From: Vulcanimicrobiota bacterium
Lineage (GTDB): Bacteria > Vulcanimicrobiota > Vulcanimicrobiia > Vulcanimicrobiales > Vulcanimicrobiaceae
Direction: 5' to 3'
Assembly: GCA_963714015.1 (NCBI GenBank)
Contig: OY970223.1
Location: forward strand, 800,001-864,000
Length of the DNA stretch: 64,000 bases
Below are positions 2,160 to 40,169 of the stretch, in pieces (position 1 is the first letter of the stretch; the number at the start of each line of letters is the position of its first letter). The notes under the pieces were generated by a model. It saw nothing but the letters and a program-made list of their open reading frames with translations. It made no database searches and was not told the origin of the DNA. Position numbers and translations under genes: made by a program.

Positions 2160-2822
2160 GTGCAGATCAGCAACGTTATTCATGCTGCTAAGGAGTCGCC
2201 GGCTCGTGTTGCGGAGGAGGTTGCGTCCGTCGTCTTCGCCGGTGGGCTCGTCATCTTTCCAACCGACACCGTCTACGGGATAGGCTGCGATCCGTTCGAC
2301 TTGGGCGCAATCGGGCGTATTTACGGAGCGAAGGAGCGGCCACAGCATAAGCCGCTATCGCTGCATGTGGCCAGTTTGGGTGAGTTTATGGAATATGCCC
2401 GGGACCGGCGCGAAGTCGTCGCAACCGCGCGGCGCCTCATGCCCGGACCGGTGACGATAATTATCCCAAAGCCTGCGTTTATCAGTTCGGAGGTGACTTC
2501 GGGCCTGCCGACATTGGGATTTCGCGTCCCCGACGATCCGCTCTGCTGCGCGATCCTGGAGCGGTGCGGACCGCTGGCGGCAACCAGCGCGAACCTCAGC
2601 GGCGAGCGCGCCTACTACGGAGCGGGCGACTGGGAGAAGCTTCCCCCGGCCGACCTCTTCATCGAAAACGGGCCGACGCGGCACCAGCGCGACTCGACGG
2701 TTATCGATATGACGGGGCCGCAGCCGACTGTGCTGCGCGAAGGGGTTGTGTCCATAGAGCGGCTAACCGAGCTGTTCGGGACCATCGGTCATCACGAATG
2801 GGCGATTCGAAAGAGGAAATGA
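2160..2822 (+). CDS. tsaC: L-threonylcarbamoyladenylate synthase (TsaC/Sua5/YrdC)
   Basis: FPTDTVYGIGC, K.RP..KPL, PGPVT, ATSANLSG and STVID..LREG motifs. Confidence 0.92.
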   Translation: MQISNVIHAAKESPARVAEEVASVVFAGGLVIFPTDTVYGIGCDPFDLGAIGRIYGAKERPQHKPLSLHVASLGEFMEYARDRREVVATARRLMPGPVTIIIPKPAFISSEVTSGLPTLGFRVPDDPLCCAILERCGPLAATSANLSGERAYYGAGDWEKLPPADLFIENGPTRHQRDSTVIDMTGPQPTVLREGVVSIERLTELFGTIGHHEWAIRKRK

Positions 2823-3433
2823 ACCTACGTATACTGCTTGCGCTGTTTGCGGTCGTCGCGCTCACCGGGCAGGCCCCCGCGCCTAGAACTACGCCGCGAG
2901 GACTCCCCACGCCGGCTCCGGCACCCGGTTCGCAGGCATCCAAAGCGCCGCAGCCGCCGCTTGCGCCGGGAAGTGCTCCATCCGCACCGCGTTCCGCCTC
3001 GGCGCCCTCGCCCAAACCGGGGACCGGTTTTTCGTTCGAAGACTGGCACGTCTCCACCGCGCAGCTCGACGCCAATTGGCAGACCGGCGCGTTCAACACG
3101 CCGACGAGCATCGTGCTTACCCGCACGGGAAGCACCATTACGGCCGATCGCGCTACGGGAAACTTCAAAACGCATCAAGCAAACCTCACCGGCCACGTCG
3201 TCGTTCACGACACGAACGGCGTGCTGACCAATTTCGCGGGACAAACGGGCCCGCACGTTCCGGCAACGCTTACGTGCGACAACCTCGACATCGATGGAAC
3301 GAAAAAGGCCTACGTCGCCACCGGTAACGTGCATTTCATTCAAGGAGGCAGTCAGGTGCGATCGCAGCGCGCCGTCATGGACGGCATCACGCACGAGATT
3401 CATTTGACGGGAAACGTGCAGCTGACGCAATGA
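2819..3433 (+). CDS. LptA/OstA-like beta-jellyroll exported protein
   Basis: ATG at 2819 overlaps tsaC stop; signal peptide, Pro-rich linker, ITADRA...LTGHV and ATGNVHFIQG...LTGNVQL repeats. Confidence 0.7.
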   Translation: MNLRILLALFAVVALTGQAPAPRTTPRGLPTPAPAPGSQASKAPQPPLAPGSAPSAPRSASAPSPKPGTGFSFEDWHVSTAQLDANWQTGAFNTPTSIVLTRTGSTITADRATGNFKTHQANLTGHVVVHDTNGVLTNFAGQTGPHVPATLTCDNLDIDGTKKAYVATGNVHFIQGGSQVRSQRAVMDGITHEIHLTGNVQLTQ

Positions 3434-4080
3434 TCCGATCGACGATGGCCCTGCTGCTCGTCTCGGCTGCCGCCATACTGCCGAAGGGGCCGCCGCACCC
3501 GTTGCCGCCGCGTCCCTCGCCCGGAGCGCCCGAGTGGAATCTGAAGACGACGCAGATGAACTCGAACATGCTCACCGGAGTCTTCTCCGCGCCGGAACAC
3601 GTGCTGCTGATGAGGGCCGACGGCTCGACGGTTAATGCAGATCGCGCGCTCGGAAACTACAAGCTGCACCAGGCTTCACTATACGGCCACGTCAACGTTC
3701 AGGATGCGGGCGGAACCTTCGGTCTGCGAAGCGCGTCGGCGGTTCAGGGACGCGGACCCGCAACGCTCACGTGCGACGAGCTCCATCTCGACGATGCGGC
3801 GCATACGTACGATGCAACCGGCAGCGTGCACTACGTACAGTCCGATACGACCATCGACGCCGACAAAGCGCATTTGAACGACCTCACCCATCAGCTGGAT
3901 CTGAGCGGGAAGGTGCACGTCGTCCAAGGCGATCGCACCTTGGACGCAGACAAAGCGACGTACAATACGGAAACCGGTCAGGGTCAATCCGAAGGCGACG
4001 TAACGATTGTGATGCCGGCGCCGAGTCCGTCGATAGCGACGCCGAAACCGATCAATATCAAACAGCCGAAGATCCCGTAG
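3430..4080 (+). CDS. LptA/OstA-like exported protein (paralog of upstream gene)
   Basis: Signal peptide; ADKA..LSGKVHVVQGDRTLDADKATYN OstA-type repeats; shares PATLTCD motif with upstream ORF. Confidence 0.75.
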   Translation: MIRSTMALLLVSAAAILPKGPPHPLPPRPSPGAPEWNLKTTQMNSNMLTGVFSAPEHVLLMRADGSTVNADRALGNYKLHQASLYGHVNVQDAGGTFGLRSASAVQGRGPATLTCDELHLDDAAHTYDATGSVHYVQSDTTIDADKAHLNDLTHQLDLSGKVHVVQGDRTLDADKATYNTETGQGQSEGDVTIVMPAPSPSIATPKPINIKQPKIP

Positions 4081-8390: not shown

Positions 8391-9178
8391 TGCAACAGCA
8401 CGCAGACGACGAACGCTGGGATCGGCAAAAGACCCGCGAAGCTTTCGCACGCTTTGCCGATGCCAAAAAGGATCCGCACAACTCCGAGTACGATCGTCTG
8501 CGCAGCGAATTGGTCGTTGCGCACCTCAACTTGGTGCGTTATCTCGCCGTCAAGTTCGCCAATCGCGGCGAGGCGCTCGACGACCTCATTCAAGTGGGAA
8601 CGGTCGGATTGCTCAAAGCGATCGACCGGTTCGATTTAGAGCGCGGCGTAGAGTTCACAACGTACGCGACGCCGACCATCGTCGGTGAAATCAAGCGCTA
8701 TTTCCGCGACAAAGGCTGGGCCGTAAAGGTACCGCGCCGGCTTCAAGAACTCAATTTGGCCGTTAACCGCGCTATCGAGAAACTCTCGGTAAAGATGGGC
8801 CGAAGCCCGACCGTCGGGGAGCTGGCCGAGCATCTGAACGCTACCGAAGAAGACATCCTCGAAGCCCAGGAGCTGGGCCAGGCGTACAACCTGCTCTCGC
8901 TGGACACCGAACTCTCCGGCGAAGGCGACAAGAAGTCGCAGACGCTGGCCGACTACATCGGCACCACGGACGCGGGACTGGCGCTGCTCGAGGACAAGGC
9001 CAATCTCGAGCGGGCGTTCGAGGTGCTCACCGGGCGCGAACGCGTCATTCTCTATCTGCGATTCTACGAGAGCGTCTCGCAGACCGAGATCGCCAAACGC
9101 CTGAACGTCTCGCAGATGCACGTCTCCCGGCTCCAGCAGAAAGCGCTCGAAAAACTCCGGCACGTCCTCCAGGAGTAG
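8390..9178 (+). CDS. sigB: SigB/SigF-family alternative sigma factor
   Basis: DDLIQVG.VGLLKAIDRFD, FTTYATPTIVGEIKRYFRDKGW.VKVPRR, SQTEIA..L.VSQMHVSRL; follows rsbV-rsbW. Confidence 0.9.
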   Translation: MQQHADDERWDRQKTREAFARFADAKKDPHNSEYDRLRSELVVAHLNLVRYLAVKFANRGEALDDLIQVGTVGLLKAIDRFDLERGVEFTTYATPTIVGEIKRYFRDKGWAVKVPRRLQELNLAVNRAIEKLSVKMGRSPTVGELAEHLNATEEDILEAQELGQAYNLLSLDTELSGEGDKKSQTLADYIGTTDAGLALLEDKANLERAFEVLTGRERVILYLRFYESVSQTEIAKRLNVSQMHVSRLQQKALEKLRHVLQE

Positions 9179-23577: not shown

Positions 23578-23661
23578 GCCCAGATGGCGGAATTGGTAGA
23601 CGCGCTGGTTTCAGGTATCAGTGGCCGCAAGGCCGTGGGGGTTCGAGTCCCTTTCTGGGCA
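23578..23661 (+). tRNA. tRNA-Leu (anticodon CAG); CCA not encoded
   Basis: GCCCAGA/TCTGGGC acceptor stem, TGGCGGAATTGGTAGACGC D-arm, CTGGT-TTCAGGT-ATCAG anticodon arm, long variable arm GGCC-GCAA-GGCC, GTTCGAGTC T-loop. Confidence 0.96.
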
Positions 23662-23750
23662 ATTTCGTCTCAGCTAAATCCAAAGTATAAAAATACTTTG
23701 GATCGAGCACAGACGAATCGCCGAATACTTTGGCTTTGCCATTTCTCGTC
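23662..23750. repeat. Left-end motif cluster: three ATACTTTGG copies (one inverted) in a long fold-back
   Basis: CCAAAGTAT 23680-23688, ATACTTTGG 23693-23701 and 23725-23733; palindrome ATCCAAAGTAT-AAAA-ATACTTTGGAT. Confidence 0.9.
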
Positions 23751-24276
23751 CCGGCCTGTGGGCATTGCCAAAAACGGCGCGCGCTCGTTTCAAGAAACCG
23801 CAACAAGGCCCCGATCACATAGATCGCGCCGCTTTTTGCCGGGCTGACTAGCGACGTCCGCCGCGACCAACGGCGCGTGTCACCCACATAGTCGTTTGCC
23901 GTCGAACGCGGGTGCGCGTGGCCGGTCGTCCTCAAAATAAACCGCGGAGGGTGTCCTTCAGTGCTCTACGAATCGCACGATTTCCATGATCGCGCCATCG
24001 GTCAGCGTCAGCATGGAAGCTGGCCCACCGAACCGCACCTCCGTGCAACCTTTTGAAACCGAACGGTGTTTAGCATTGGGTCCCGGCTCAGCAGCCGCGG
24101 ATGTCCCCGTCATCGGCTCTTCCGGTTACGGTCAGTCTAAGAATAGAAGAGCGCGAACGATGCTTGATTCTTGTCTGGCATTTAGTAGCGAGAGATAAGG
24201 CAAGAACAGACTTAGAGTAAGGCGCTTTTCCAGCTTGCCGCTGGACGAGCTATCTGAATATAAGGATGTGTTGCCA

Positions 24277-24372
24277 GTGCGTAAAACAGCATGGGCGCTA
24301 TTTATTGGCGTCGTAGCTGGCCTTATTGCTAACCTCGTGTCAGCAATTTGCGCCGCCTTTCTTGGGTTTTAA
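24277..24372 (+). CDS. 31-aa hydrophobic peptide, type I toxin-like (not in ORF track)
   Basis: TAAGGA RBS; (M)RKTAWALFIGVVAGLIANLVSAICAAFLGF; followed by hairpins. Confidence 0.5.
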   Translation: MRKTAWALFIGVVAGLIANLVSAICAAFLGF

Positions 24373-24397
24373 CGAAACCCCGCGCCCGTAAAGGGCC

Positions 24398-24424
24398 AAA
24401 GGGAGCAGCGCAAGCTGCTCCTTC
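24398..24424. terminator. Stem-loop between the convergent peptide and transposase genes
   Basis: GGAGCAGC-GCAA-GCTGCTCC perfect 8-bp stem with GNRA loop; T-tail weak. Confidence 0.55.
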
Positions 24425-24450
24425 GCTATTTCCCGCGACGTAGCCACGTG

Positions 24451-25987
24451 CTACGACGCGTATGGTAGGATGATTCGACGCAGTGACGTGATGTTGGTTC
24501 CGAGTGTGACGCTCACGGGCTCGCGCAGTTGGTACTCCCACGCTGCGATCCGGCGTGCGTTATGAGCAATGGCGATCCCGTACGCCTCGTTCGTCTGAGC
24601 AGTTCCGACGAGTTCCTGCGCCAAGAACGTGCAAAACAACTCTCGCGCCGTCTCCAGGCTCGTTGGGCCTTTCGCCGGATACTTTTGCGCGAGCCGTTTC
24701 ATTTCAGCTTTACGCGTGCGCGACTTGATGTGGCCGCTGACGCGCTGCTCAGACGAAAAGACGCCTTCCATGCGCTGACGATACCGGTGAAACGTTCGGT
24801 AGATCGCGGGATGTTCGCGGCGCAGAAACTCCATGAACGCCATCGTCTCGCGTCCGAACTCGGCATTATCGGGATTCACCTTCTCTTTGATCATGACCAT
24901 CAGCATGATGCCTAGATCTTGAAGCGCGCCGTAGTGCTCGTCATCCCAGTAGGCTTTGTCGCCTACAACGAGCTTCACGTTCGGATTCAGCGCACGTCGC
25001 ACCAGATCGGGCAGGTGCTTCACGTCGGCGGTTCCTTCCCCGAATTTCAACGTGCAGCTGAGCGAGTAGATCAACCCTGACATCAAGCCTGCGACCGTGT
25101 GGACCTTGACGAAGCCCTTGCGGTACTTGGTGCGCTTTTCGATGGCGTCTTCGCTGAAGAAGTATTTCTGGAGAATCCAGATGGCCGCTTTTGACGTTCC
25201 GAAGCCGGTGGCGTCGATCCCTAGGATGCGATCCATTCCGCGGCCCGGACGTGACGACGCTTTCAGCAGGCGTTTGAGGGTGTCGAGCACGAGCGGATCG
25301 CCATGAACTTCGAGAGGGTCTCGTCGCTCAATGCCTGCTGATTTTTGTATCCCTCCCGAATGCCTCCGAGCATGCGGTACCGAGGGTCTTTTTCGAGATC
25401 TTCCCTCAGCTTGTGCGCTTTGACGCCCTCACCGGCCTTGACGAGAAGCGCATAGACGAGCGCCGCCCACGGGATGCGCGGCTGTCCCCGCTTGGATCGA
25501 CGCGGTCGGGGATCGGTCAGCAGGCGGCACATGTCGTAGAGGTGGTCGCGGAGGCGCTGCGTGTCTTCTTGAGCCTGGTTGACCCGCGTGGTGAACCGGT
25601 CGCCATACGGGTGGACTACCTGGGGCAGCTCCAGCCGGCGGGCGAGGGCGTACGGGCCCGGAACCCGGCAGGTTGTTCTCCAGGCAGTAGTAGGCGGTGT
25701 GCCCGCACGCGCCGACCCGGTTTGTCCGGTAGACTGTGACACATGCCCGTGATGCGCTTCGTCTTGTGCTGGACCTTGTAGAGCGCTCTCCGTTCGCCGT
25801 CGGCATGTTTCGAGTAAAAAATCCACAGCGTCGGCGACACTTTTTCGATGTCAAAGCGGCGGGCGTAAGTCTCGGACGCCTCGTCGTCGGGCAACATCGC
25901 GGGCAACAGAATGACTGGCGCTGGCAGCCCGAATTCGATGAGCTGGCTGGCGACGTCGTTGATTTCCCGCTGCACCTTGCTCATCAT
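24451..25987 (-). CDS. SWIM-finger-fused DDE transposase (IS4/IS5-like DDE_Tnp_1), ~3 frameshifts
   Basis: Joined ORFs 25616-25987, 25429-25854, 25263-25826, 24451-25290; C...ACGH finger, NQAQ...G.PR; ILGIDATGF, VVGDKAY and HRYRQRMEGVFS catalytic D-D-E. Confidence 0.8.
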
Positions 25988-25990
25988 TTG

Positions 25991-26262
25991 CTAGCGGCTC
26001 TTTCGAAAGCCCTCCCGTGATCGTGCAAACGCCTGCCAAATGTCTTCGGCCTCAGCGTCGGTTTGCGCCAGCAGCCATGACGCTGGAATCAGGCGGGCAT
26101 CACCGATCTTCCGGGGATGATGCCGGCATAAACGTCTGCGTAGATCGTGCGTAGACCAAGTCCGGTAAGATTTGCCACTCCGCGCGGACGGTAGTACAAG
26201 CGTTCAATGGGGGTTGCTCGCTCACTCTTTTGTGTCGTTGTCCTGTTTTTTTGCGTTCGCAT
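25991..26262 (-). CDS. Excisionase-like HTH (HTH_17/MerR-like), one frameshift near 26110
   Basis: RLYYRPRGVANLTGLGLRTIYADVYAGIIP then RKIGDARLIPASWL in the shifted frame; stop 3 bp before transposase start. Confidence 0.75.
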
Positions 26263-26353
26263 TCGCGAGGTGATCTCCCGGTTGCACAGGCAAATAGGTG
26301 ATCGAAGAAGACTCGACTCGCACACGCCACATTGTGTCGATCCTTCTTAATCG

Positions 26354-26742
26354 CTAACGCCGCTTCCCGGAAGTCTCCGTCACCTCCGCCTCGGGTGCCT
26401 CGATGGCCGCTGGCTTAACTTCGCGGCTCGCCGCGCGCATTAAGGCGTCCGCTTCGCGTGCATTTTTTTCAGGCAGCGGCACGCATTCTATCGTTAGCCC
26501 GGCGTCAAAGCGCCTTGGATCTTTCAAGTGAGCATTTGGTGAAAAGCCGGATAGGTCAGTAGCAGCGTGCGCTTCGGTGCCTGCACGAGAGCGACAGAAT
26601 AGATTTCACTAATTGCGTTGTGCACGTCGCCCGCGGAAATCGTTTTCCCGGCCGTAAGGCCGGAAAGTCGCCTCGATGCTTGCGACGATGGTGGCATCCG
26701 ACGCAGCCGCGTCGAATTCTTGCGATTCGGAGTCAGTTTCAA
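26354..26742 (-). CDS. Hypothetical protein (frameshift near 26525)
   Basis: ORF 26524-26742 continues as LKDPRRFDAGLTIECVPLPEK...GKRR in another frame; co-oriented with xis. Confidence 0.35.
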
Positions 26743-27180
26743 GAACTGCGTGCTGAACTCTACGCTATGGATCTCCTGAGCCGTGGCCTCGCACGTGATT
26801 CTCGACGACCGTGGTCAGTAACGCGTGTTAGCCATTCAGACGACTCTGCGCACTTCGACGCGCGGCAATTCACAGACGACGGCCGTTGCGCCCGGCGACA
26901 AATCCAACGCGGCGGCAACGCCTTCCGGAGCGGACTCCGACCAGGCTTCGAACAAGGACAACGCGTTCAATACGACGCCGTCAGCGCCGTCCACCCTGAC
27001 CTCATAAAATGCCGAAGACTGCATGCTAGCGCCAAGGCTGGGTCTACTACTGCGGCGAGGGAGACGCCGGATCGCTCGAATCTTCGGGCATATCACCGAA
27101 TCGCACGGATAGGTCGCCATCGCGGTTCTGAAAGGCCCCCCATCTTCACGTGTCCATCGTCGAACATGATGTACGTATCT

Positions 27181-27549
27181 CTAAACCGGCAATTGTTCGC
27201 ATTCCAATGCAACTGCCAATCGGTTGTTCTTGCTCACCATCTTCGTCTGCGCATCGTACGAGAGCAGTACGGCGTCGCCATGCATCCGAACGATCCTCAA
27301 CGTATACGGCTGGCACGCGGAGTCGATCTCCCTTGCGGACGCACCTTCAGAATAGACCTTCAACGTATCGCCGTTTGCGAGCGTCAACGATCCGCACAGG
27401 TCTCCCGAGCCGCAATCCTTCACGGCGGTGGCGACGGAACCGTCCCGCATCTGAACATGCAACGGACTGTCCAGACTCGGATCGGCGGCTAATCCGACGG
27501 CAGCGCTCGTCAAGAGAAGGGCTAGACACATAACACCCGTCCTAAACAT
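27181..27549 (-). CDS. Small secreted Cys-containing protein
   Basis: GGAG RBS; signal peptide MFRTGVMCLALLLTSAAVGLAA; paired Cys. Confidence 0.6.
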   Translation of the reverse strand: MFRTGVMCLALLLTSAAVGLAADPSLDSPLHVQMRDGSVATAVKDCGSGDLCGSLTLANGDTLKVYSEGASAREIDSACQPYTLRIVRMHGDAVLLSYDAQTKMVSKNNRLAVALECEQLPV

Positions 27550-27824
27550 TAAATCTCCGCGTCAAGACAAACGAAAAATCGCCAGCATCCAAAGAAGGCG
27601 CCCGCGTCGAAATTCGCTTCAGCGGGCGAACTCCCTGGGGCATGTCCGCGGTAGTCGCCCATGGACGCCGTCCACATGGACCCGTTAACGGGTCAACCTC
27701 CAACATTCTACGCATTGCGGTTGCCCGCAGATTCCACGTTGATAGCGCGCAATGCGCTCCAGCATCCATACAGCGCAGGCAGCGCCTCTCGTACGTTCCC
27801 AACGTCCGAATCTTGTGACTACTC

Positions 27825-28730
27825 TCAACTATTTTCAGCGTCGCCGTTTTCCATTCCACTGACACGCAACCACTGCTGGTAGGCGCTCAAAACCGTCGAA
27901 GCAACATGTACCGCGGGACCGAACTTCGCGTGCAGACTCTTTTGTCGTTCGACGTCAATCGCATGGTGAGCGACATCGCTGTCGTCACGAAGCCGTCGCA
28001 AAGGTTCGATTTCATCTGCAAAATAACCATAGGAAATCCCGAAGTTGCGATAGCGCCTCTGATAATCCCGATCCACACTGGGATCGCCAATTATGACCGA
28101 AACGGCTTTCCAAAGATTCAGTATCATCGCCGACGCAAGCACGTCGAAATCTGGCGTACCAAACTTAGCGATAACGCCTTGGTTTGCAATCAACATCAAT
28201 GCGTGCCGGTAATATATCAGTGCCCTGTCTAGTCGCTCGTCCGTCGTTGCGGAAAGCAAAGCGGCTCGCGAAATCTTTTCGCAAAGCATGTGTGTGTCGT
28301 ATGTCGTGAATGAAGCCAGATCGCCGAATCTAGGCAGCGGGTACGCCTTGCCAGCGTCGTCGCGAAACGAAACCAGTTCGTACGAAATCTGCTGTTCCAG
28401 TTGAACGGACGCCGATTCCATAAGCCGGTTCAAAGAATTCGTGATCCTGAAAAGTGCTTCCGAGTGTGACGCAACTGGCAAATCACACACGACCATGATG
28501 TAGTTGTCGTTCAGCGTCATCCGGAATCCATCTAATACGAAAGACACGCGCACGGCGTCCTCGTCTTCGCGATACCGTGACATCGTGCCGTGCCCGACCT
28601 TTCGGAGCGTTGAAGTATCCAAGGCCGCTGAAACAATTTCTGCTTGACCAGACGGATAGACGGTCTTCGTCCCGTCTGGGACGCCGAAGATGCCCGGAGG
28701 AAATATCTCCGCATGGACGATGTACGTCAT
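27825..28730 (-). CDS. Hypothetical protein with C-terminal HEPN-like (MauJ/ApeA-like) domain
   Basis: Intact 301-aa ORF; RLDRALIYYRHAL...LNLWKAVSVI...LRRLRDDSDVAH (R-x6-H). Confidence 0.6.
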   Translation of the reverse strand: MTYIVHAEIFPPGIFGVPDGTKTVYPSGQAEIVSAALDTSTLRKVGHGTMSRYREDEDAVRVSFVLDGFRMTLNDNYIMVVCDLPVASHSEALFRITNSLNRLMESASVQLEQQISYELVSFRDDAGKAYPLPRFGDLASFTTYDTHMLCEKISRAALLSATTDERLDRALIYYRHALMLIANQGVIAKFGTPDFDVLASAMILNLWKAVSVIIGDPSVDRDYQRRYRNFGISYGYFADEIEPLRRLRDDSDVAHHAIDVERQKSLHAKFGPAVHVASTVLSAYQQWLRVSGMENGDAENS

Positions 28731-28764
28731 TCACGAGCCTTTCACTGATTGACGCCGCGCGGCT

Positions 28765-31700
28765 CTACGCGAAGACGTCGGCATACTGGCGCACACCCAT
28801 CTTCATCAACTCGTCATTGACGTGCAGAGCCGTTTTTTCCGCTTCGCCCCCAGCTGCGCGAGCATTTCGAAAGATTTCGCGTACACCGTCCTGATTCATG
28901 AACGGAAACGGCGTCTGCCTCTTCACCAGCAGATCCAGTGCCGTAACGGCCTCCCGCGGATGCGTCGCGCTCAAAGACTCCGAGTTTCTCAATGACTCTC
29001 CATTCCATGTTTACCTGCCCGGCGGTACTGTGCAAAACTGCTTGCAGCATGGACAAGGCCCACCTTGGATCGACGTTGTCGGAAATGAACCAAAGGCCGA
29101 AAATGGCAAGGATCTTCCGACGTTCCTCGAGCGTTCGATCTGAATAGAGTTCCAACATTCGCTCGAAGAGTACCTCGAACCGATGCATCGTTTCATCCGA
29201 CCAGTTTGGCGAATTCAAGGCGTTCCCGGCGCTCGTCATCATGTGCGACAATGCGGATGGCGGCGCGTCGTGCAAGAACGCTGCAAGCGGGCCTTGTTGC
29301 AGATCTAGTCGTCCCCATAGGTACGGACCCAAAAAGTGGGATCCGAGCGAACCGGCGGGATACCAGTCTGTCCGATCAACGTTCGGCTCCTCGCCGATGC
29401 TAAACGCATGGCGCTCGTAGCGCGAGCGCAGGACGTCAAACGTCTCTCCGTAGATGCGATTGAAGACAAGGTACGCTTCCCAGGATGCGCGTCCAGCATC
29501 GTCGTTCGTAAATATCCGATCGAGAGCACCTTTCGTCCACGTTCTCGACTCCGCATAGATGGATACGAAGTTCTGTCCATACGTGGAACGGATCGCGCGC
29601 GTGTGCTCGACCATGGGATCCAGCATACGGTCGAGGAGCGAAAACAGTTCGGGCGCGTGCGGACGCAGATCGAATTCGCCCTCATCCCCTTTCAGTGCTG
29701 CGTTGATCCAGCGCGCGTACTCGAACAACGCTAGCATTCCGGCCCCGCGCGCAGAGTTCAGCGCTAAACTCCAAGGGTCGCCGTGCGATTCGCGTCCGGA
29801 GTAGCGGTCATCCTGATCGGGCGTGGGATCGCGGTCCGCGATAATTGCTTCGATGATTTGGAAAACGCGGGCGCGCAATGCGTACGGTAGAGATTTACCG
29901 CGCATCATATCCGTAAGCGCGAACGCGATCGTCTGCCGCAACGGTCCCCAGGACGGTTCGTCGTCGTCCGCTTCGTCCAACGTCTCGTAGTTGCGCTCCG
30001 CTTCGGCTGCGTCCGCCTTGCACATCTCCATCAGCGAAACGTACGCGTCGTAATCGAAATCTGTGCCGGTGGCATGCGGCCGAATCGCTTCAACGACGTG
30101 ACGCACATAGATCGGCGGCGGACTCGCTGACACGCCGCCATTGCTCAAGAAATTCGCGCCGCCGTTCGACGACGAGCGGCTGCAGCGCGCGCCCGAGGCC
30201 TTCGGGTGACGGTGCTAACCAGCCGCCTTCGGGCGTCCAGGATTCCAGGTACGTCAGCACCTCCGCCGTGGACATTTCGCGCAATTCTTGCGCCGATTTC
30301 GGAGCCTCCGGCCCCAGCGATGTTTCGGCGTGCTGAGGCGATTGGTCGTATTCTTGCGCGAAGCGCATCTTCAAATCGTCGAATCGCGCTAGATCGTCCC
30401 CAGCGAGGTACGGCGCAATCGGCTTCATCTGCTCGTACGTCTGACGGGCCCTGAACCGCTCGACGGCGGCCTGTAGGTCTTGTTCCTCGACGCGACCACG
30501 CAGAAGTACAACCGCCCGTGCTTTCGTCGTTATACCGGCACGTAGGCCTGCAACGATCTTTTTGCGGTCCTCTTCCTCGAAATCCGGAAAGAACCGAGAC
30601 AGGAAATCTCTTCGCTCCTTCGTGTTTTGGCGATAGGAAAGCAGGTTGCCGCGCTCGGCCAATGCGGTCTTTGCGTTCTCTGCTTCTCCGACGGCAGTTA
30701 TGATCGCCAGCGAGATGCGTTTGAAGACGTCGTGCTCGAACCTGCGGAGCAGTGAAAGAACCTCGTCAACGGGAAACCGGCCTGCATTCACGGCCGCGCA
30801 CGAAGTAGAGTAGATTTTGAGGGAAAGGCGCTGCTTTACGCCGTGCGCCATATTGGCGTCTTCGCGGATCTCGGGAAGCCAGCTGGTGGAGTAATCCGTG
30901 ACCGGCTCCCCTTCGATTTCCAGTGCGTCCTTCAGCCGATACGCCAGCATTTCAACGAATTCCAACGGCTCCGCTTGGCCGAGGAACGTTCGATACTATC
31001 TAGCGCCGCGACGTATTGCATGTCGCCGATCTTCGCGGCGGCCCGACGGCGTTTTCGACCCATGAGTTCGAACTGGTCGTCAACCGTTATCAAATCCAGC
31101 ACCGATCGGGCGATCTTTCGGGCCGCGGCGTACTCTCCCGACGCCGTGAAATGCTTTATGACGTTCAAGTAGGCGTATTGGAGTCGGTCAGGATCCGCTT
31201 CGAACCATGCCCTGAGCGGCTTTACCAACGTCTTTCCTGTCGCGGCCGGCATGTTGTTCACCGCAGCGACCAGTTCGTACACTACAAGTGTATTGTCGGT
31301 CTTGATGTTGCGGATGACGTCCGCGACTTGGTCCGGTATTGCATGCGCGACGTTTACCAGATACTTGCCCTGCGGCCAACGCATGAAAACAATTCGATCG
31401 CCGCTCCGACGGGAAGTTGGAGGCGAATCGAACATGTGACATCTCTTGAGCAGATAGAAAGCCTTTGGATTTTTAAGGCGCTCGAAAAAATATAGCGCAT
31501 CCTCGGGATGTCCAAGCGCCTCAATGGATGCGCGAAGTTTTCCCTCGTTCACCACGATTCGATCTCCGCAAGGTTTTCATCCATGCGTGCCTGTCGTTCG
31601 TGCCGATGGCCAAGTATGGCGTGCAAGATGTCCTCGAACCGGTCCCATTCATCAAGCGCTTCCGATTCGTTGCGCAGCTTGTGACGTGTCGGCACATGCG

Positions 31701-32237
31701 CTAACTTCTCGCCCTCCAAGCGGACGAGTCCCCTCGCTACATGGGTCATCTCTTCGGGATAGACGCCGTGCAGAAGGCCTAAGACTTCCGACAAGGCCTC
31801 CACGCGCTCCCCTTCGACGTTCGACTCCTGCGTTATCCAACGGTTGAGCGGGACGCCAACTCGAACCGGATCGTCACGGAACTTTCCGCGCTGGGGCGTG
31901 ATTGCGCGTCCCCCAGCGCAAGATCCCCGACCGCGGCGCGCCACTGTGCAAAGACCTGTAGTCTTTCCTCACGCCGCAGACGATCATGATCTTCATCGCC
32001 CCCCGCTGGTTCCAGACCCTCATAGTGATCCCGCAAGCGGTTCACGATTTCGCGCATCGCGTGGCCGATGAGGTAGGCCCTCCCCGGAAAACCCTCGCAC
32101 TGGCGCAGAATCGCCCCAGACTCGAACACCGCCGCCATCTCGCCGAACAGCTGCAGTGCCTCGACTATGTCGCGTTCTCGCTTGTTGAGTAGCGCGCGGA
32201 GGATGGAGATAGTCCCACCCAAGGACTCGTCCGGCAT
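28765..32237 (-). CDS. Large (~1150 aa) alpha-helical putative defence protein, broken by several frameshifts
   Basis: Consecutive overlapping ORFs 31833-32285, 31549-31944, 30932-31555, 30090-30965, 28814-30148, 28765-28992; N-terminal GHAMREI..RL motif; FF..L..P...F..PP...WP...YL...A...P motif. Confidence 0.6.
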
Positions 32238-32637
32238 GCCGTCTGTTTTTGCACTAACCACCACGACGAATCTTGCTTCGCACAATGCCGTGCCATATGC
32301 CTCGCATCAGTTCATGTGTGGCGCACCGCTTTTGCTACTAGGAATTGGTCTAACGTCCGGTGTTCGGCGCGCTCAAAGCCGAGCGAGTGGCTCCAATCGA
32401 TGATTTTGTGAATGCCGGCCATGAAGGCAGCCGCCGGCCCCCAGGCGCTATATCGTGAATGGAACGAGCACCCTGGTGCCTTTCGTTGACGCGGCGGGTT
32501 CATCGACGCTACCATCGACGCCCTATGAGGATCCTGGATATTGGCCCCGAGAAGGCCCAACCAGCGGATTCGAATCCTGAGCAGGCGACGCACGCGCAGT
32601 GCCCTATTAAGAGTGGCAAGGAGACGCACATAAGGAT

Positions 32638-34492
32638 ATGAGCGTCGGACGTGCCATCGCGTCACAGAACTTCCCACCCCTGTTCGGGCCTTATCACCGG
32701 ACGGAGACTCTCGCTGCCCTGGCACTTCATGGACCGATGCCGGCACCGGCGCTGGAGCGCATTTTTTCGCTACAGACGTCCCGGAGTATACGTCGCGAAG
32801 GCCGAATCGCGCCAAGATGCTGGTCCCGGTTCGAGCCGCGAAAGGCCAACTCGGGGGCACCACGGTGATCGGAGATCAACCCCCGGCTTCCGGTGCGTTC
32901 GGAACTGGAAGACCTGCTCGGCGCGCTGCGCCGCCACCACGCTGTGCGGCCATGAGCAACCCGGTTCTTCCTATACAGATGGCGGCGTTTTTGGAGGGGC
33001 CACGCCCCCGAGGTAGATCTGGATTTCCTTTTTTGCAACGCGGGTCCGCACCCGGACGCTGGTGGTGCCGAGGGCGCTCGGTGGCGAGGAGACCACCGGA
33101 CGGCTACAGCGATCGGTTCTGAATTTTTTCTCCGGACGCGTCCGTGGAGCAGTCGTCGGATTCGTCGAGGATGGAATTCTGGAACTCGACGGGTAGACCG
33201 TGCGGTTCAACCAGCGCCTTACGTGGCTTAATGAGCTGTACGCGCTTTTGCACGCCTTGGGACATCTGATGGGCGACGTCGTCAGCCACGCACGCTCGGC
33301 GAATGACGAACGGCAGAACAATCCAGGACGATCCAGTGGTGAGCTATGGAACGCGCTTCCGCCTTTTCGGAAGCCGCGCAAACCAAGCGATGCTCGCATG
33401 CCTAGCCGCTTTCGGTCCCAAACGTTCAACGGCGCTTGCCGCCGTATCGGCGGTCAAAGATTCGACGGCGATCCATAGGCTTGTAAAAGCCGGCATCGTC
33501 TGCCGGGTACCGGGAGCCAAAGCCCGTGCCGGCGATTTCTATGCGCTCAACGCGGCACATCCGGTCTATTCGAAGCTCGAGCCGCTTTGCGCACCGACGC
33601 GATACTGGACGAAAGCCTTCCGTTTCGGCAACCGGGGTTGCTGTACGGACGGGCCGGACGGGTTCGAGGAGCGGCAGTCGTTTCCGCCACCCTATGAAAT
33701 CTTCGGAACCCAAAAGAAGGACGCCCGGGCCAACATTGTGGCCACTCTGGCGCACACCGAGCACGCCGAAGCCGATGCTGGCTCCCTTTCGCGCCTGCTC
33801 TCGGAGCACGAAAGCACCTCGATTTTGAAGGCGTTGAAACGGCTTGCGAAGCACGGCGCGCTCGCCAGACGGGAACTTCGTGGCCTCAATCTGTACCGCG
33901 TAAATCCGGATGAACGCGCCATGACGAACTGCTCGACCTGCTTTTTGCGATGGGTCGGGCATGGCCACGCGACTTCTCCGAGGGAGGCCAAGTCGAAGCG
34001 CGCCTGCATCCCCCTAGGCGGAACGCCATCGAACGCGCTCGCCGCACCGAGGCTGGTCGGCCCGCGGCAATGCCGGTTGCCGCGACATGAGCAAGTCTGC
34101 CCTGCCTCCCGTTCCGCATGGTGCGTAGACCGAACAGAGAGCAAAGAAGACTTGGAAACGCAGGTGTTGCGTCAACGAACGGCGCGCGGCCGCCATCGAG
34201 CCCAACTTTGCTCTCACCCACGGCGCGCGTGCTCTTCGCCCTGACCGACGTCCCCCGTCAAAGCGCTACGTTAATTGCGGAGGCGGGGTGTGATCCCCAT
34301 ATCGGTCACCGGAGTCTGCGCCGCCTCATTCTTCTCGGCCTTGCGAAGCGAACCGCTATAGGGCAAATCCGGCTCGCCGAGCCTTCGCCGAATTCCGGAA
34401 TTTTCAAGGTCACATTTTTGGGGTCACCCGTCGAGCCCGGCTCCGCCTCGTATCGGCGAGCGGGGAATCTCACGTGTCTGTCGGCTATTTGA
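32638..34492 (+). CDS. Tandem winged-helix repeat protein (~5 repeats), multiple frameshifts
   Basis: TAAGGA RBS; recurring units LFGPYHRTETLAALALHGP, LFATRVRTRTLV, LFGSRANQAMLACLAAFGP..YALNAAHP, IFGTQ..ARANIVATL..LYRVNP, LLSPTARVLFAL. Confidence 0.6.
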
Positions 34493-34660
34493 TCGACGGG
34501 GCCGGGCAGACGCCGCGTCATCTAGCCTGGTGCGGGCGCATCATCATCGCCGGCGAGAGCAGCGCGAAGGTGCCGATGGGATTGTGCTACTCTTGTTCAC
34601 CGGCAGCTCTGGGGGCCACCAGCGAACGACGCCGCGGCGTGAGCGCATCCAGTGAGACAT

Positions 34661-34811
34661 CGAATACTTTGGCTTCAAGCTGCTATACGGTAGAATACTT
34701 TGGATTCACGCAGTAAAAGCGTAATACTTTGGATTTAGCCATTTCGTCTAGCTTAACCCAAAGTATTTCGAGTAGGGTAAGAAGATCTCTCGCCGCAGAT
34801 ACTTTGGGTTA
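34661..34811. repeat. Right-end/junction cluster: five ATACTTTGG copies around the ATTTCGTCT core
   Basis: Direct copies at 34664, 34695, 34724 and 34799; inverted copy 34758-34766; core at 34741-34749. Confidence 0.9.
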
Positions 34812-39499: not shown

Positions 39500-40169
39500 T
39501 CGTACGCACCGTCCTCACCTTGCTGTGCTGCCCGACGTCGTCCATCGCGCCCCAACACCAACCGTTTACGCAGATCGCCGTCGCTTCTCGCCATGATACG
39601 TATCTGCCAGTCGGGCCGCAAAAGCACTGCGCAAAGCAGTGTACGTTCCGGCGCGGATGCGGTATCATCGACGGCCGTGTCAAACCTCGAGTACACGCTG
39701 AAGGCGAAGCACAGGTGGCGCCTTCGACATCATCAGATCAATCCGCACGCGCTTCAACGGCGGCGCGTTCTGGATGCCGGAATTCCGTGCTCTGCTGGAT
39801 GTGCTCGCATCGTATATGCCCGAGGTCGTCGGCCACGCGGTCGAGCAGCGGGGACACAGAATCTCCAGCAAGCGGGGCACGTCGCATTCCGCCGGGCAGA
39901 AGTTCCGTCTATTCGGCAGCCGCGTGAACCAGGCGATTCTGGCGTACCTGGCGGCGAACGGACCTGGCGGCAAGACGCAGATCATGGCGGCGGCGAACTG
40001 CGACGTGCCGGCGATCCGCCCGCTCCTTGAAGGTGCTGCCGGGACGGTCTGCGTCATCCCGGCACGCTCTGGCAACCGCGGTGATCTGTACTCGCTGAAC
40101 GCCCCCCATCCGGTGTTCGCGGAAATCCGCGCGCTGCTCCGGACCGAGGCGATCCGCAAGCAGACCTAG
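39500..40169 (+). pseudogene. Remnant paralog of the tandem winged-helix protein
   Basis: WMPEFRALLDVLASYMPEVVGHA...FRLFGSRVNQAILAYLAANGP...GDLYSLNAPHPVF aligns by eye with 33200-33580; 5' boundary uncertain. Confidence 0.65.

Follow-up and report, generated by a model that had tools for sequence, protein, structure and literature searches.

Site-specific transposition by bacterial DDE transposases is known mainly from the Tn7 family, in which it requires a multi-protein machine. As described in PMC2918618, TnsD recognizes a conserved stretch at the end of glmS, to which it binds, and directs insertion just downstream of it. Here we report on an 11,067-bp element (positions 23673-34739) located in a 64,000-bp stretch of the genome of a Vulcanimicrobiota bacterium (contig OY970223.1, positions 800,001 to 864,000; hereafter the window), which carries the pseudogene of a tandem winged helix-turn-helix (wHTH) protein at its right end and a transposase gene at the opposite end. 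The original prediction, made from the sequence alone, had taken the former for a DNA-binding protein able to read either a long site such as the tRNA gene, in a TnsD-like role, or the repeats at the end of the element. Our results suggest that only two genes are common to a family of cargo-carrying DDE transposons, one coding for a four-wHTH protein of ~450-510 aa and the other, at the opposite end, for a transposase of the IS4/IS5 superfamily with a Tn5-like fold. On balance, the four-wHTH protein is probably a transposition accessory or DNA-recognition factor of one kind or another; more tentatively, and with a probability of roughly 0.35, we favour a role as target selector analogous to TnsD over the binding of transposon ends.

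The likeness to TnsD is that of a non-catalytic, transposon-encoded protein, with a role that is predicted here, in elements that insert at a fixed place and in a fixed orientation at the 3′ ends of tRNA-Leu (twice) and ssb (once) and pile up in tandem; the likeness in site and orientation is a property of the elements and not yet of the four-wHTH protein. For this protein, neither a TniQ domain with its N-terminal zinc finger nor any other Pfam or NCBIfam family was found in the open reading frames (ORFs) of the window or in intact members, and four winged helices are present instead. Furthermore, no genes resembling tnsA, tnsB or tnsC were detected using Pfam among the ORFs of at least 130 aa of the window element, and its transposase is of the IS4/IS5 type. 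Since the protein is devoid of a TniQ domain and the element of TnsABC genes, TnsD would be the closest functional analogue and not a relative. A second point of comparison is provided by the PIF/Harbinger elements, whose transposase is related to IS5 and whose ORF1 product is a DNA-binding protein. Mobilization of these elements requires ORF1 and the transposase, both element-encoded, according to PMC2836001, and their target duplication is reported as 3 bp in PMC2213677. They differ from the elements described here in being eukaryotic, in a Myb/SANT fold as opposed to a winged helix (no Myb family was found in Pfam for window ORFs or intact members), in a target duplication of 3 bp as opposed to 10-11 bp, and in being small and without cargo. 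In the literature searched, no DDE transposase was described as having a partner with tandem winged helices.

The pseudogene lies on the plus strand at 32638-34090, in segments at 32638-~32950, ~33026-33334, 33348-33905 and ~33912-34090. Three-frame translation bore out that units of the form LFG...GP...LN..HP...L..LL are repeated on this strand and spread over several frames. The strongest match inside the region pairs unit 1 (32680-32931) with unit 3 (33363-33602), at 32% identity over 84 aa (E value 0.001), the unit 1 stretch containing a stop codon. The first 206 aa of the longest ORF across the pseudogene (33303-34244), which served as query for protein searches, align with the C-terminal halves of relatives, for instance with residues 233-419 of the 474-aa protein P0002 (42% identity). 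To map the whole pseudogene, the intact homologues P0002 and the protein of a genome from a second genus (G244) were aligned back onto the window. Residues 1-130 of P0002 correspond to positions 32638-33033; a second frame takes up residues 128-225 at ~33026-33334, and a third takes up residues 235-419 at 33348-33905. The tail at ~424-464, which contains the conserved …LLLAMGRxWPE…, aligns with ~33912-34042, in a frame that runs on to a stop codon at 34088-34090. The fragments thus join into a single tandem-wHTH gene, as had been proposed, with the pieces in order along full-length P0002. The extent of that gene had been overestimated: it comprises four units in ~484 codons instead of about five in ~600 aa, stops at 34090 instead of 34492, and ends 573 bp, not ~170 bp, before the first copy of the repeat array at 34664. 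The supposed fifth unit, a plus-strand ORF at 34118-34492, lies 3′ of the family C-terminus and is not part of the gene; it is probably spurious, its comparison with the family profile giving an hhalign probability of 2% and a search of 150 other genomes of the family a single weak match.

The aligned segments are interrupted by two in-frame stop codons, TGA (32866-32868) and TAG (33194-33196), and the frame changes at least three times (~32950-33026, ~33290-33348 and ~33905-33912). The window copy is therefore a pseudogene of the four-unit winged-helix family, which it resembles in full-length homology to members of 413-512 aa, in four homologous units and in a linked IS4/IS5-type DDE transposase, while an uninterrupted reading frame is missing. 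Assembly errors are an unlikely source of the frameshifts because two lesions are substitutions that created stop codons, and 18 open frames of at least 400 aa are present in the window. A look-up of sequencing runs for 32600-34200 listed none. In agreement with the claim that no catalytic domain is evident, the pieces of the pseudogene matched no Pfam family at E ≤ 0.01 and only sub-threshold wHTH families at E ≤ 1.

The family is rare, unannotated and looks new. Using the 206-aa query, 46 of 1.84 billion representative proteins were retrieved at E ≤ 1e-3 (13 at E ≤ 1e-10), 31 of which are 413-509 aa long; intact four-unit relatives range from 413 to 512 aa. Neither the window pieces nor intact members reached any family of Pfam, NCBIfam or PHROGs. 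The matches to Pfam were all sub-threshold (MarR, 16.3 bits for a cut-off of 24.6; PaaX, 17.7 for 24.8; AbiEi_4, E value 0.023), and the PADLOC model PDC-M05A weakly matched one unit over ~70 residues (E values 1e-7 to 2e-4). For the putative resemblance to the wHTH N-terminal to MNT nucleotidyltransferases that had been pointed out from the sequence, the AbiEi_4 and PDC-M05A matches are the only indications. Family members were singletons without names in a cluster look-up, and a protein atlas returned generic HTH clusters only, with scores up to 0.90.

That each repeat is a winged helix, as originally proposed, is supported by the model of an intact relative and by matches of its single units to known structures. 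The AlphaFold2 model of P0002, computed from a 32-sequence alignment, has a mean predicted local distance difference test score (pLDDT) of 87.7 and a predicted template modelling score (pTM) of 0.83, and is composed of four units, each predicted to form three helices, a β-hairpin and a trailing helix. Profile-profile comparison of the units with one another using hhalign found all six pairs to be homologous (probability 96.4-98.9%, E values 1e-9 to 1e-17, 79-93 columns). Single units matched the repressor structures HlyU, CzrA, SmtB and MarR-type in Foldseek, with a template modelling (TM) score of 0.65 for 4ooi_B, and a structural search independent of Foldseek gave Z scores of 8-10 for the same repressor families (10.2 for 4k2e_A; 8.8 for 6uvu_B, with a root mean square deviation (rmsd) of 2.2 Å over 76 residues). 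The unit fold is thus that of the ArsR/SmtB and MarR repressors (HlyU, CzrA, SmtB, AntR), which are single-domain dimers, whereas here four units are fused in a fixed arrangement and fall below the Pfam thresholds. The whole model had no match in the PDB at E ≤ 0.001 using Foldseek. Rpc82 has four winged-helix domains according to PMC5814912, and TFIIIC tauB is described as reading tRNA-gene promoter elements (10.1101/2023.05.16.540835). Rpc82/RPC62 and tauB, both eukaryotic, resemble the family in having several winged helices per chain; their Foldseek matches (E values 0.014-0.06, TM scores 0.10-0.14, rmsd >20 Å) are not significant and the comparison is an analogy only.

The element around the pseudogene has the ends of a DNA transposon. 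Its insertion target is a tRNA-Leu(CAG) gene identified by ARAGORN on the plus strand (23578-23661). The left target-site duplication CAATTTCGTCTCA (23660-23672), which includes the last two bases of the tRNA, was compared with the right target-site duplication CATTTCGTCTA (34740-34750), from which it differs by two single-base indels; we read the pair as a target duplication of ~11 bp that would include the last two tRNA bases. Between them, the left terminal inverted repeat GCTAAATCCAAAGTAT (23673-23688) is complementary at 16 of 16 positions to the right one at 34724-34739. The location of the gene next to the right end of a mobile element, also part of the original prediction, is supported by the inverted repeat and the target duplication. 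The site ATACTTTGG occurs eight times in the window for 0.10 expected, and 20 times genome-wide. Three copies, in the orientations -, + and +, form the left-end cluster (23680-23733), and five lie at 34664-34807, including the three direct copies of the right-end cluster (34664-34739), which start at 34664, 34695 and 34724 with spacings of 31 and 29 bp. The 16-bp inverted repeat takes in the outermost copy on the left and, on the right, the third copy, which is the outermost there and lies within 34724-34739.

Immediately beyond the right duplication, repeat pairs revealed the left-end-like remnant of an older tandem element (34751-34807), made up of GCTTAACCCAAAGTAT at 34751-34766 and another copy of the site at 34799-34807. 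We read this arrangement as a newer element (23673-34739) that would have inserted between the tRNA gene and an older resident of the same kind. This interpretation fits two further observations. In the same-genus genome G210, in which the site is empty, homology to the window ends at 23665 and resumes at ~47770, the stretch 23666-~47770 being absent. In addition, the older tandem island (34751-~47770), which opens with the left-end-like repeat, holds an internal fragment of a second family gene on the plus strand at 39741-40169 (family positions ~185-326, unit 3; annotatable as a 131-aa ORF at 39774-40169); it contains no other part of the family gene, and no transposase remnant was found in it. 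A candidate reading in which direct repeats of 75-140 bp at the element ends would be the attL and attR of a tyrosine or serine recombinase was rejected, because the perfect inverted repeat, the short duplication and the second left end explain the repeats better. No such recombinase gene was found among the ORFs of at least 130 aa of the window element, for which a Pfam scan gave DDE_Tnp_1 only; the cargo of the G244 element was scanned in part (seven ORFs of locus L040), so that this absence covers the ORFs of the window element.

A second element of the same architecture and with different cargo was found on contig C14 of G244, where it extends over 26.8 kb, as compared with 11 kb in the window. 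Five copies of AATACTTTGG lie at 472-598 and three at 27223-27285, with the same + + + - + pattern of sites as in the window. The family gene of this element is intact (478 aa, 2623-4059) and reads toward the five-copy end, and the gene of its 555-613-aa transposase ends at 27148 and reads toward the three-copy end, which adjoins a tRNA-Leu(CAG) gene. The inverted repeats ATACTTTGGATGTAGC and GCTCCATCCAAAGTAT are complementary at 15 of 16 positions, and the target duplication TGGCCGTTGG is a perfect 10 bp that takes in the complement of the tRNA's CCA. In both the window genome (G000) and G244, it is the transposase end that lies nearest the tRNA-Leu target, and in both a second left end follows past the right one, which is what repeated insertion at one site would be expected to produce. 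Comparison of these loci, whose proteins are only ~40-54% identical, shows the same site and orientation being used at tRNA-Leu(CAG) in two genera, with what appear to be tandem insertions. A third cluster of three AATACTTTGG copies occurs in G244 near the end of contig C32 (C32:140682-140751; ~8680-8750 of locus L051), and possibly marks where the older tandem element has its far end.

Profile searches were extended to a sample of 401 genomes of the phylum. Genome tallies given here include entries flagged as unpublished (G237, G247, G359, G263 and G178); claims about individual loci rest on the others. All four units were found in 14 genomes. In 12 of these, as at the window locus, the contig of the wHTH gene also carries a divergently oriented transposase homologue 0.9-42 kb away from it; in the two others (G308 and G356) the wHTH gene is located on 8-28-kb contigs of fragmented assemblies. 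Beside the family itself, the transposase was the only gene cluster present in more than two loci (5 of 13 loci, plus the window), whereas every other cluster was limited to at most 2 of 15 loci. A phylum-wide search for the transposase matched 28 of the 401 genomes at E ≤ 1e-45, 25 of which were judged to carry this type and three only a shorter relative of ~410 aa. This search added four divergent pairs (G121, G079, G318 and G290) and two adjacent co-directional pairs (G249 and G118), which brings the linked pair to 18 genomes, of the 25 with this transposase type and of the 401 sampled. The homologues are thus tied to mobile ends through a DDE transposase of the same contig. The expected association with tRNA islands did not extend to the family at large, as no tRNA was seen at any of 13 family-gene loci in the 8-20 kb retrieved on these genes. 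Among nine elements with both genes intact or nearly so, the identities of one protein between pairs of elements rise and fall with those of the other (Mantel r 0.83, permutation p 2e-4), a figure that ignores host relatedness. A search with P0002 found no related loci in genome contigs, and metagenome contigs yielded two loci with close homologues (L065 and L066). Relatives with two units (~235-245 aa, units 3-4) were observed just upstream of four-unit genes at L049 (G308:C180, 2281-2982) and L042 (G083:C83, 6433-7146).

The transposase gene of the window (24451-25990, minus strand) reads toward the tRNA and is broken into pieces in several frames. DDE_Tnp_1 was detected by Pfam in the window copy (36.3 bits), above cut-off there and in three of the five partner-locus transposases scanned. 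The window fragments are 40-53% identical to the G244 transposase and gave two separate profile matches. An alignment of the transposases revealed invariant D, D and E positions and, toward the N-terminus (~80-115 in the G400 protein), a conserved CxC…CxH pattern that we take to resemble a SWIM-type zinc finger. The AlphaFold2 model of the transposase (pLDDT 72.4) starts with a region of sheet plus helix, continues with a helical region and has an RNase-H-like core, and its best structural matches are to Tn5 transposase (1muh and 3ecp; probability 1.00, E value 3e-3, ~240 columns). These matches, together with DDE_Tnp_1, the 10-11-bp duplication and a Y-x2-R-x3-E-x6-K pattern that is readable in the G244 protein, connect the enzyme to Tn5 and IS4. 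It differs from these in its additional N-terminal CxC...CxH, in the 10-40 kb of cargo and the specific insertion sites of its elements, and in falling far below the cut-off of all NCBIfam IS-family models (15.6-54 bits for cut-offs of 110-325). A query with a single transposase retrieved no homologous protein at 1e-10, and a query with the alignment retrieved four, all unnamed. From the alignment and the model, the transposase has candidate DNA-binding parts of its own and could bind the ends itself. A prediction of the complex between the G400 transposase and its wHTH protein scored 0.00 for a mark of 0.32, which has no bearing either way.

Site arrays were also found 3′ of the transposase stop codon in G105, in G264 and in six of ten further flanks. 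They consist of three to five copies of a 10-14-bp motif, the inner copies being direct and the outer ones inverted, and the motifs vary between clades, with at least four types among the elements analysed: ATACTTTGG, GATTCA(A/T)TGTGAAA, TTCACC... and GCGAATTC.GGAAATCC. In G264, the outermost site of the transposase-side end starts ~7 nt after the stop codon of ssb (PF00436, E value 4e-36), as seen at locus L046 (G264:C31, 5735-6252), which makes ssb a second kind of conserved-gene target. The window genome itself contains another element, of ~45 kb (G000:C1:2850495-2896190), which is not beside a tRNA. Its family gene is intact and codes for 512 aa (2850647-2852185), its transposase gene (2893811-2895409) is 42 kb distant and may be frameshifted close to the C-terminus, and the site repeated at both of its ends is another one, GCGAATTC.GGAAATCC. 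The cargo of this element was seen to include an ISL3 transposase as well as HNH_5 and TIR_2 proteins. Elsewhere, a SAVED and Cap4-nuclease protein (a CBASS-type effector) is encoded just beyond the transposase end of the G177 element (locus L062, G177:C1, 2216-3649), and genes of the HicA-like and HRDC-domain kinds lie within the L044 element; cargo or neighbours of a defence type seem to be frequent. In the window element, five overlapping ORFs (444, 291, 207, 131 and 150 aa) without any Pfam match occupy the minus strand at 28814-32285. This chain looks like one large frameshifted cargo gene, which would fit decay of the whole element.

In these elements, the two genes usually point outward, with 1-42 kb of variable cargo between them, and the element has terminal inverted repeats, a 10-11-bp target duplication and, near each end, three to five copies of a 9-14-bp site. 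These observations can be assembled into a mechanism. The four-wHTH protein would be a non-catalytic, sequence-specific DNA-recognition partner of the transposase; its most probable role would be to recognize the target, namely the 3′ end of tRNA-Leu(CAG) in the window and G244 and that of ssb in G264, and to guide insertion, in a single orientation, to the position just downstream, in the manner of TnsD in Tn7. The end sites would be bound by the transposase itself. DNA binding, the choice of target over ends and contact with the transposase are all properties that we infer for the four-wHTH protein. We favour target selection because precise and oriented insertion beside conserved genes needs a selector, and the four-wHTH gene is the only other gene shared by these elements. 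The core of the end sites is also present in the terminal inverted repeat, whose inner part is bound by the transposase in characterized bacterial DDE transposons. Moreover, a compact protein of four domains would suit a contiguous site of 30-40 bp better than sites ~100 Å apart. In its most explicit form, this would amount to a two-protein route to safe sites in the style of Tn7, in which one four-wHTH protein reads ~30-40 bp at the 3′ ends of conserved genes and steers an IS4/IS5-type DDE transposase that places cargo elements of 10-45 kb in one orientation, without a TnsC-like ATPase, TniQ or a guide RNA, and with an array of domains that could possibly be re-targeted; we regard this complete scheme as doubtful.

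Several observations weigh against the mechanism assembled here. The window copies of the wHTH gene and of its transposase gene are both dead, and nothing works here now. Binding of DNA by the four-wHTH protein is a prediction, and the winged-helix domain itself is not confined to transposons, since the family profile matched 173 of the 401 genomes at E ≤ 1e-5, mostly as single- or two-unit ORFs of 110-300 aa. A tRNA abuts only two of the 22 transposase-side ends examined (those of the window and G244, both with tRNA-Leu(CAG)), and none abuts the other 20, which comprise 5, 5 and 10 loci from three sets. A conserved target was identified for only three elements (window, G244 and G264), so that site specificity may not be general. 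In the second element of the window genome, the sites begin 13-60 bp after the stop codon, and the two metagenomic loci showed no transposase within 8-10 kb, no tRNA, no ATACTTTGG and no clear array. To these must be added the disregard of host relatedness in the co-variation of the two proteins, and the end arrays and the position of the gene beside the right end, which fit end binding equally well.

The latter explanation casts the four-wHTH protein as an end binder or architectural factor that occupies the 9-14-bp end sites, especially in the right array by its own gene, and recruits or organizes the transposase. We consider it unlikely, although it accounts for the three to five copies of the site per end in the window element and in G244, for the conserved spacing of ~30 bp at the right end, and for the similar arrays of the second element of the window genome, G105, G264 and six of the ten further transposase-side flanks. 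A site of 9-14 bp would also suit a single winged helix, and PIF/Harbinger, with its need for two element-encoded proteins as described in PMC2836001, offers a precedent. On the other hand, the predicted structure is compact (pTM 0.83) whereas the sites are ~30 bp apart, and the arrays of G244 and G105 are separated from the gene by 2-3.5 kb. The transposase has N-terminal domains of its own, and the core that the sites share with the inner inverted repeat would, as in known bacterial DDE transposons, be expected to be bound by that enzyme.

A transposon-encoded repressor or immunity factor, which would silence the transposase or cargo or block further insertion and be dispensable for both chemistry and targeting, is a still less probable explanation. 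Each unit has the fold of the ArsR/SmtB/MarR repressors, with sub-threshold matches to PaaX, MarR and AbiEi_4, and conservation in a mobile element would be expected of a regulator as well. Nevertheless, none of the eight copies of ATACTTTGG in the window lies upstream of the transposase gene or the wHTH gene, all being at the ends; strong immunity is hard to reconcile with the tandem insertions found in two genomes at the same tRNA; and four fused units would be unusual for a simple repressor. We find it quite improbable that the protein has no part in transposition and belongs to a cargo or maintenance gene located near the end by chance, for example the iteron-binding replication initiator or the partition protein of an excised circle. 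Direct repeats ~30 bp apart do resemble iterons, and plasmid Rep proteins use tandem winged helices. Yet Pfam, NCBIfam and PHROGs gave neither Rep_3 nor any other family of replication or partition proteins; the 50 structural matches listed include no Rep, which by itself would be compatible with a Rep-like fold. The position and orientation of the gene relative to the transposase are fixed in 16 divergent loci while other cargo varies, and its identities co-vary with those of the transposase. Target selection by the four-wHTH protein remains the explanation that we tentatively prefer.

The window copy is a relic and its interest lies in the family that it reveals, of which the same genome keeps a second element with an intact wHTH gene. 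Our data point to a family of elements with only two genes in common and with large and varied cargo, which in two genera nevertheless land at one and the same base next to the same tRNA gene and are oriented alike. If the four-wHTH protein supplies this specificity, it would represent a new and compact way to aim a transposase, with tandem DNA-reading modules acting in mobile DNA. If it binds the end arrays, PIF/Harbinger and En/Spm, both two-protein systems, would have a bacterial counterpart in these elements. In both cases, an unannotated protein family gains a testable role, and unexplained genomic islands in the phylum gain an explanation.

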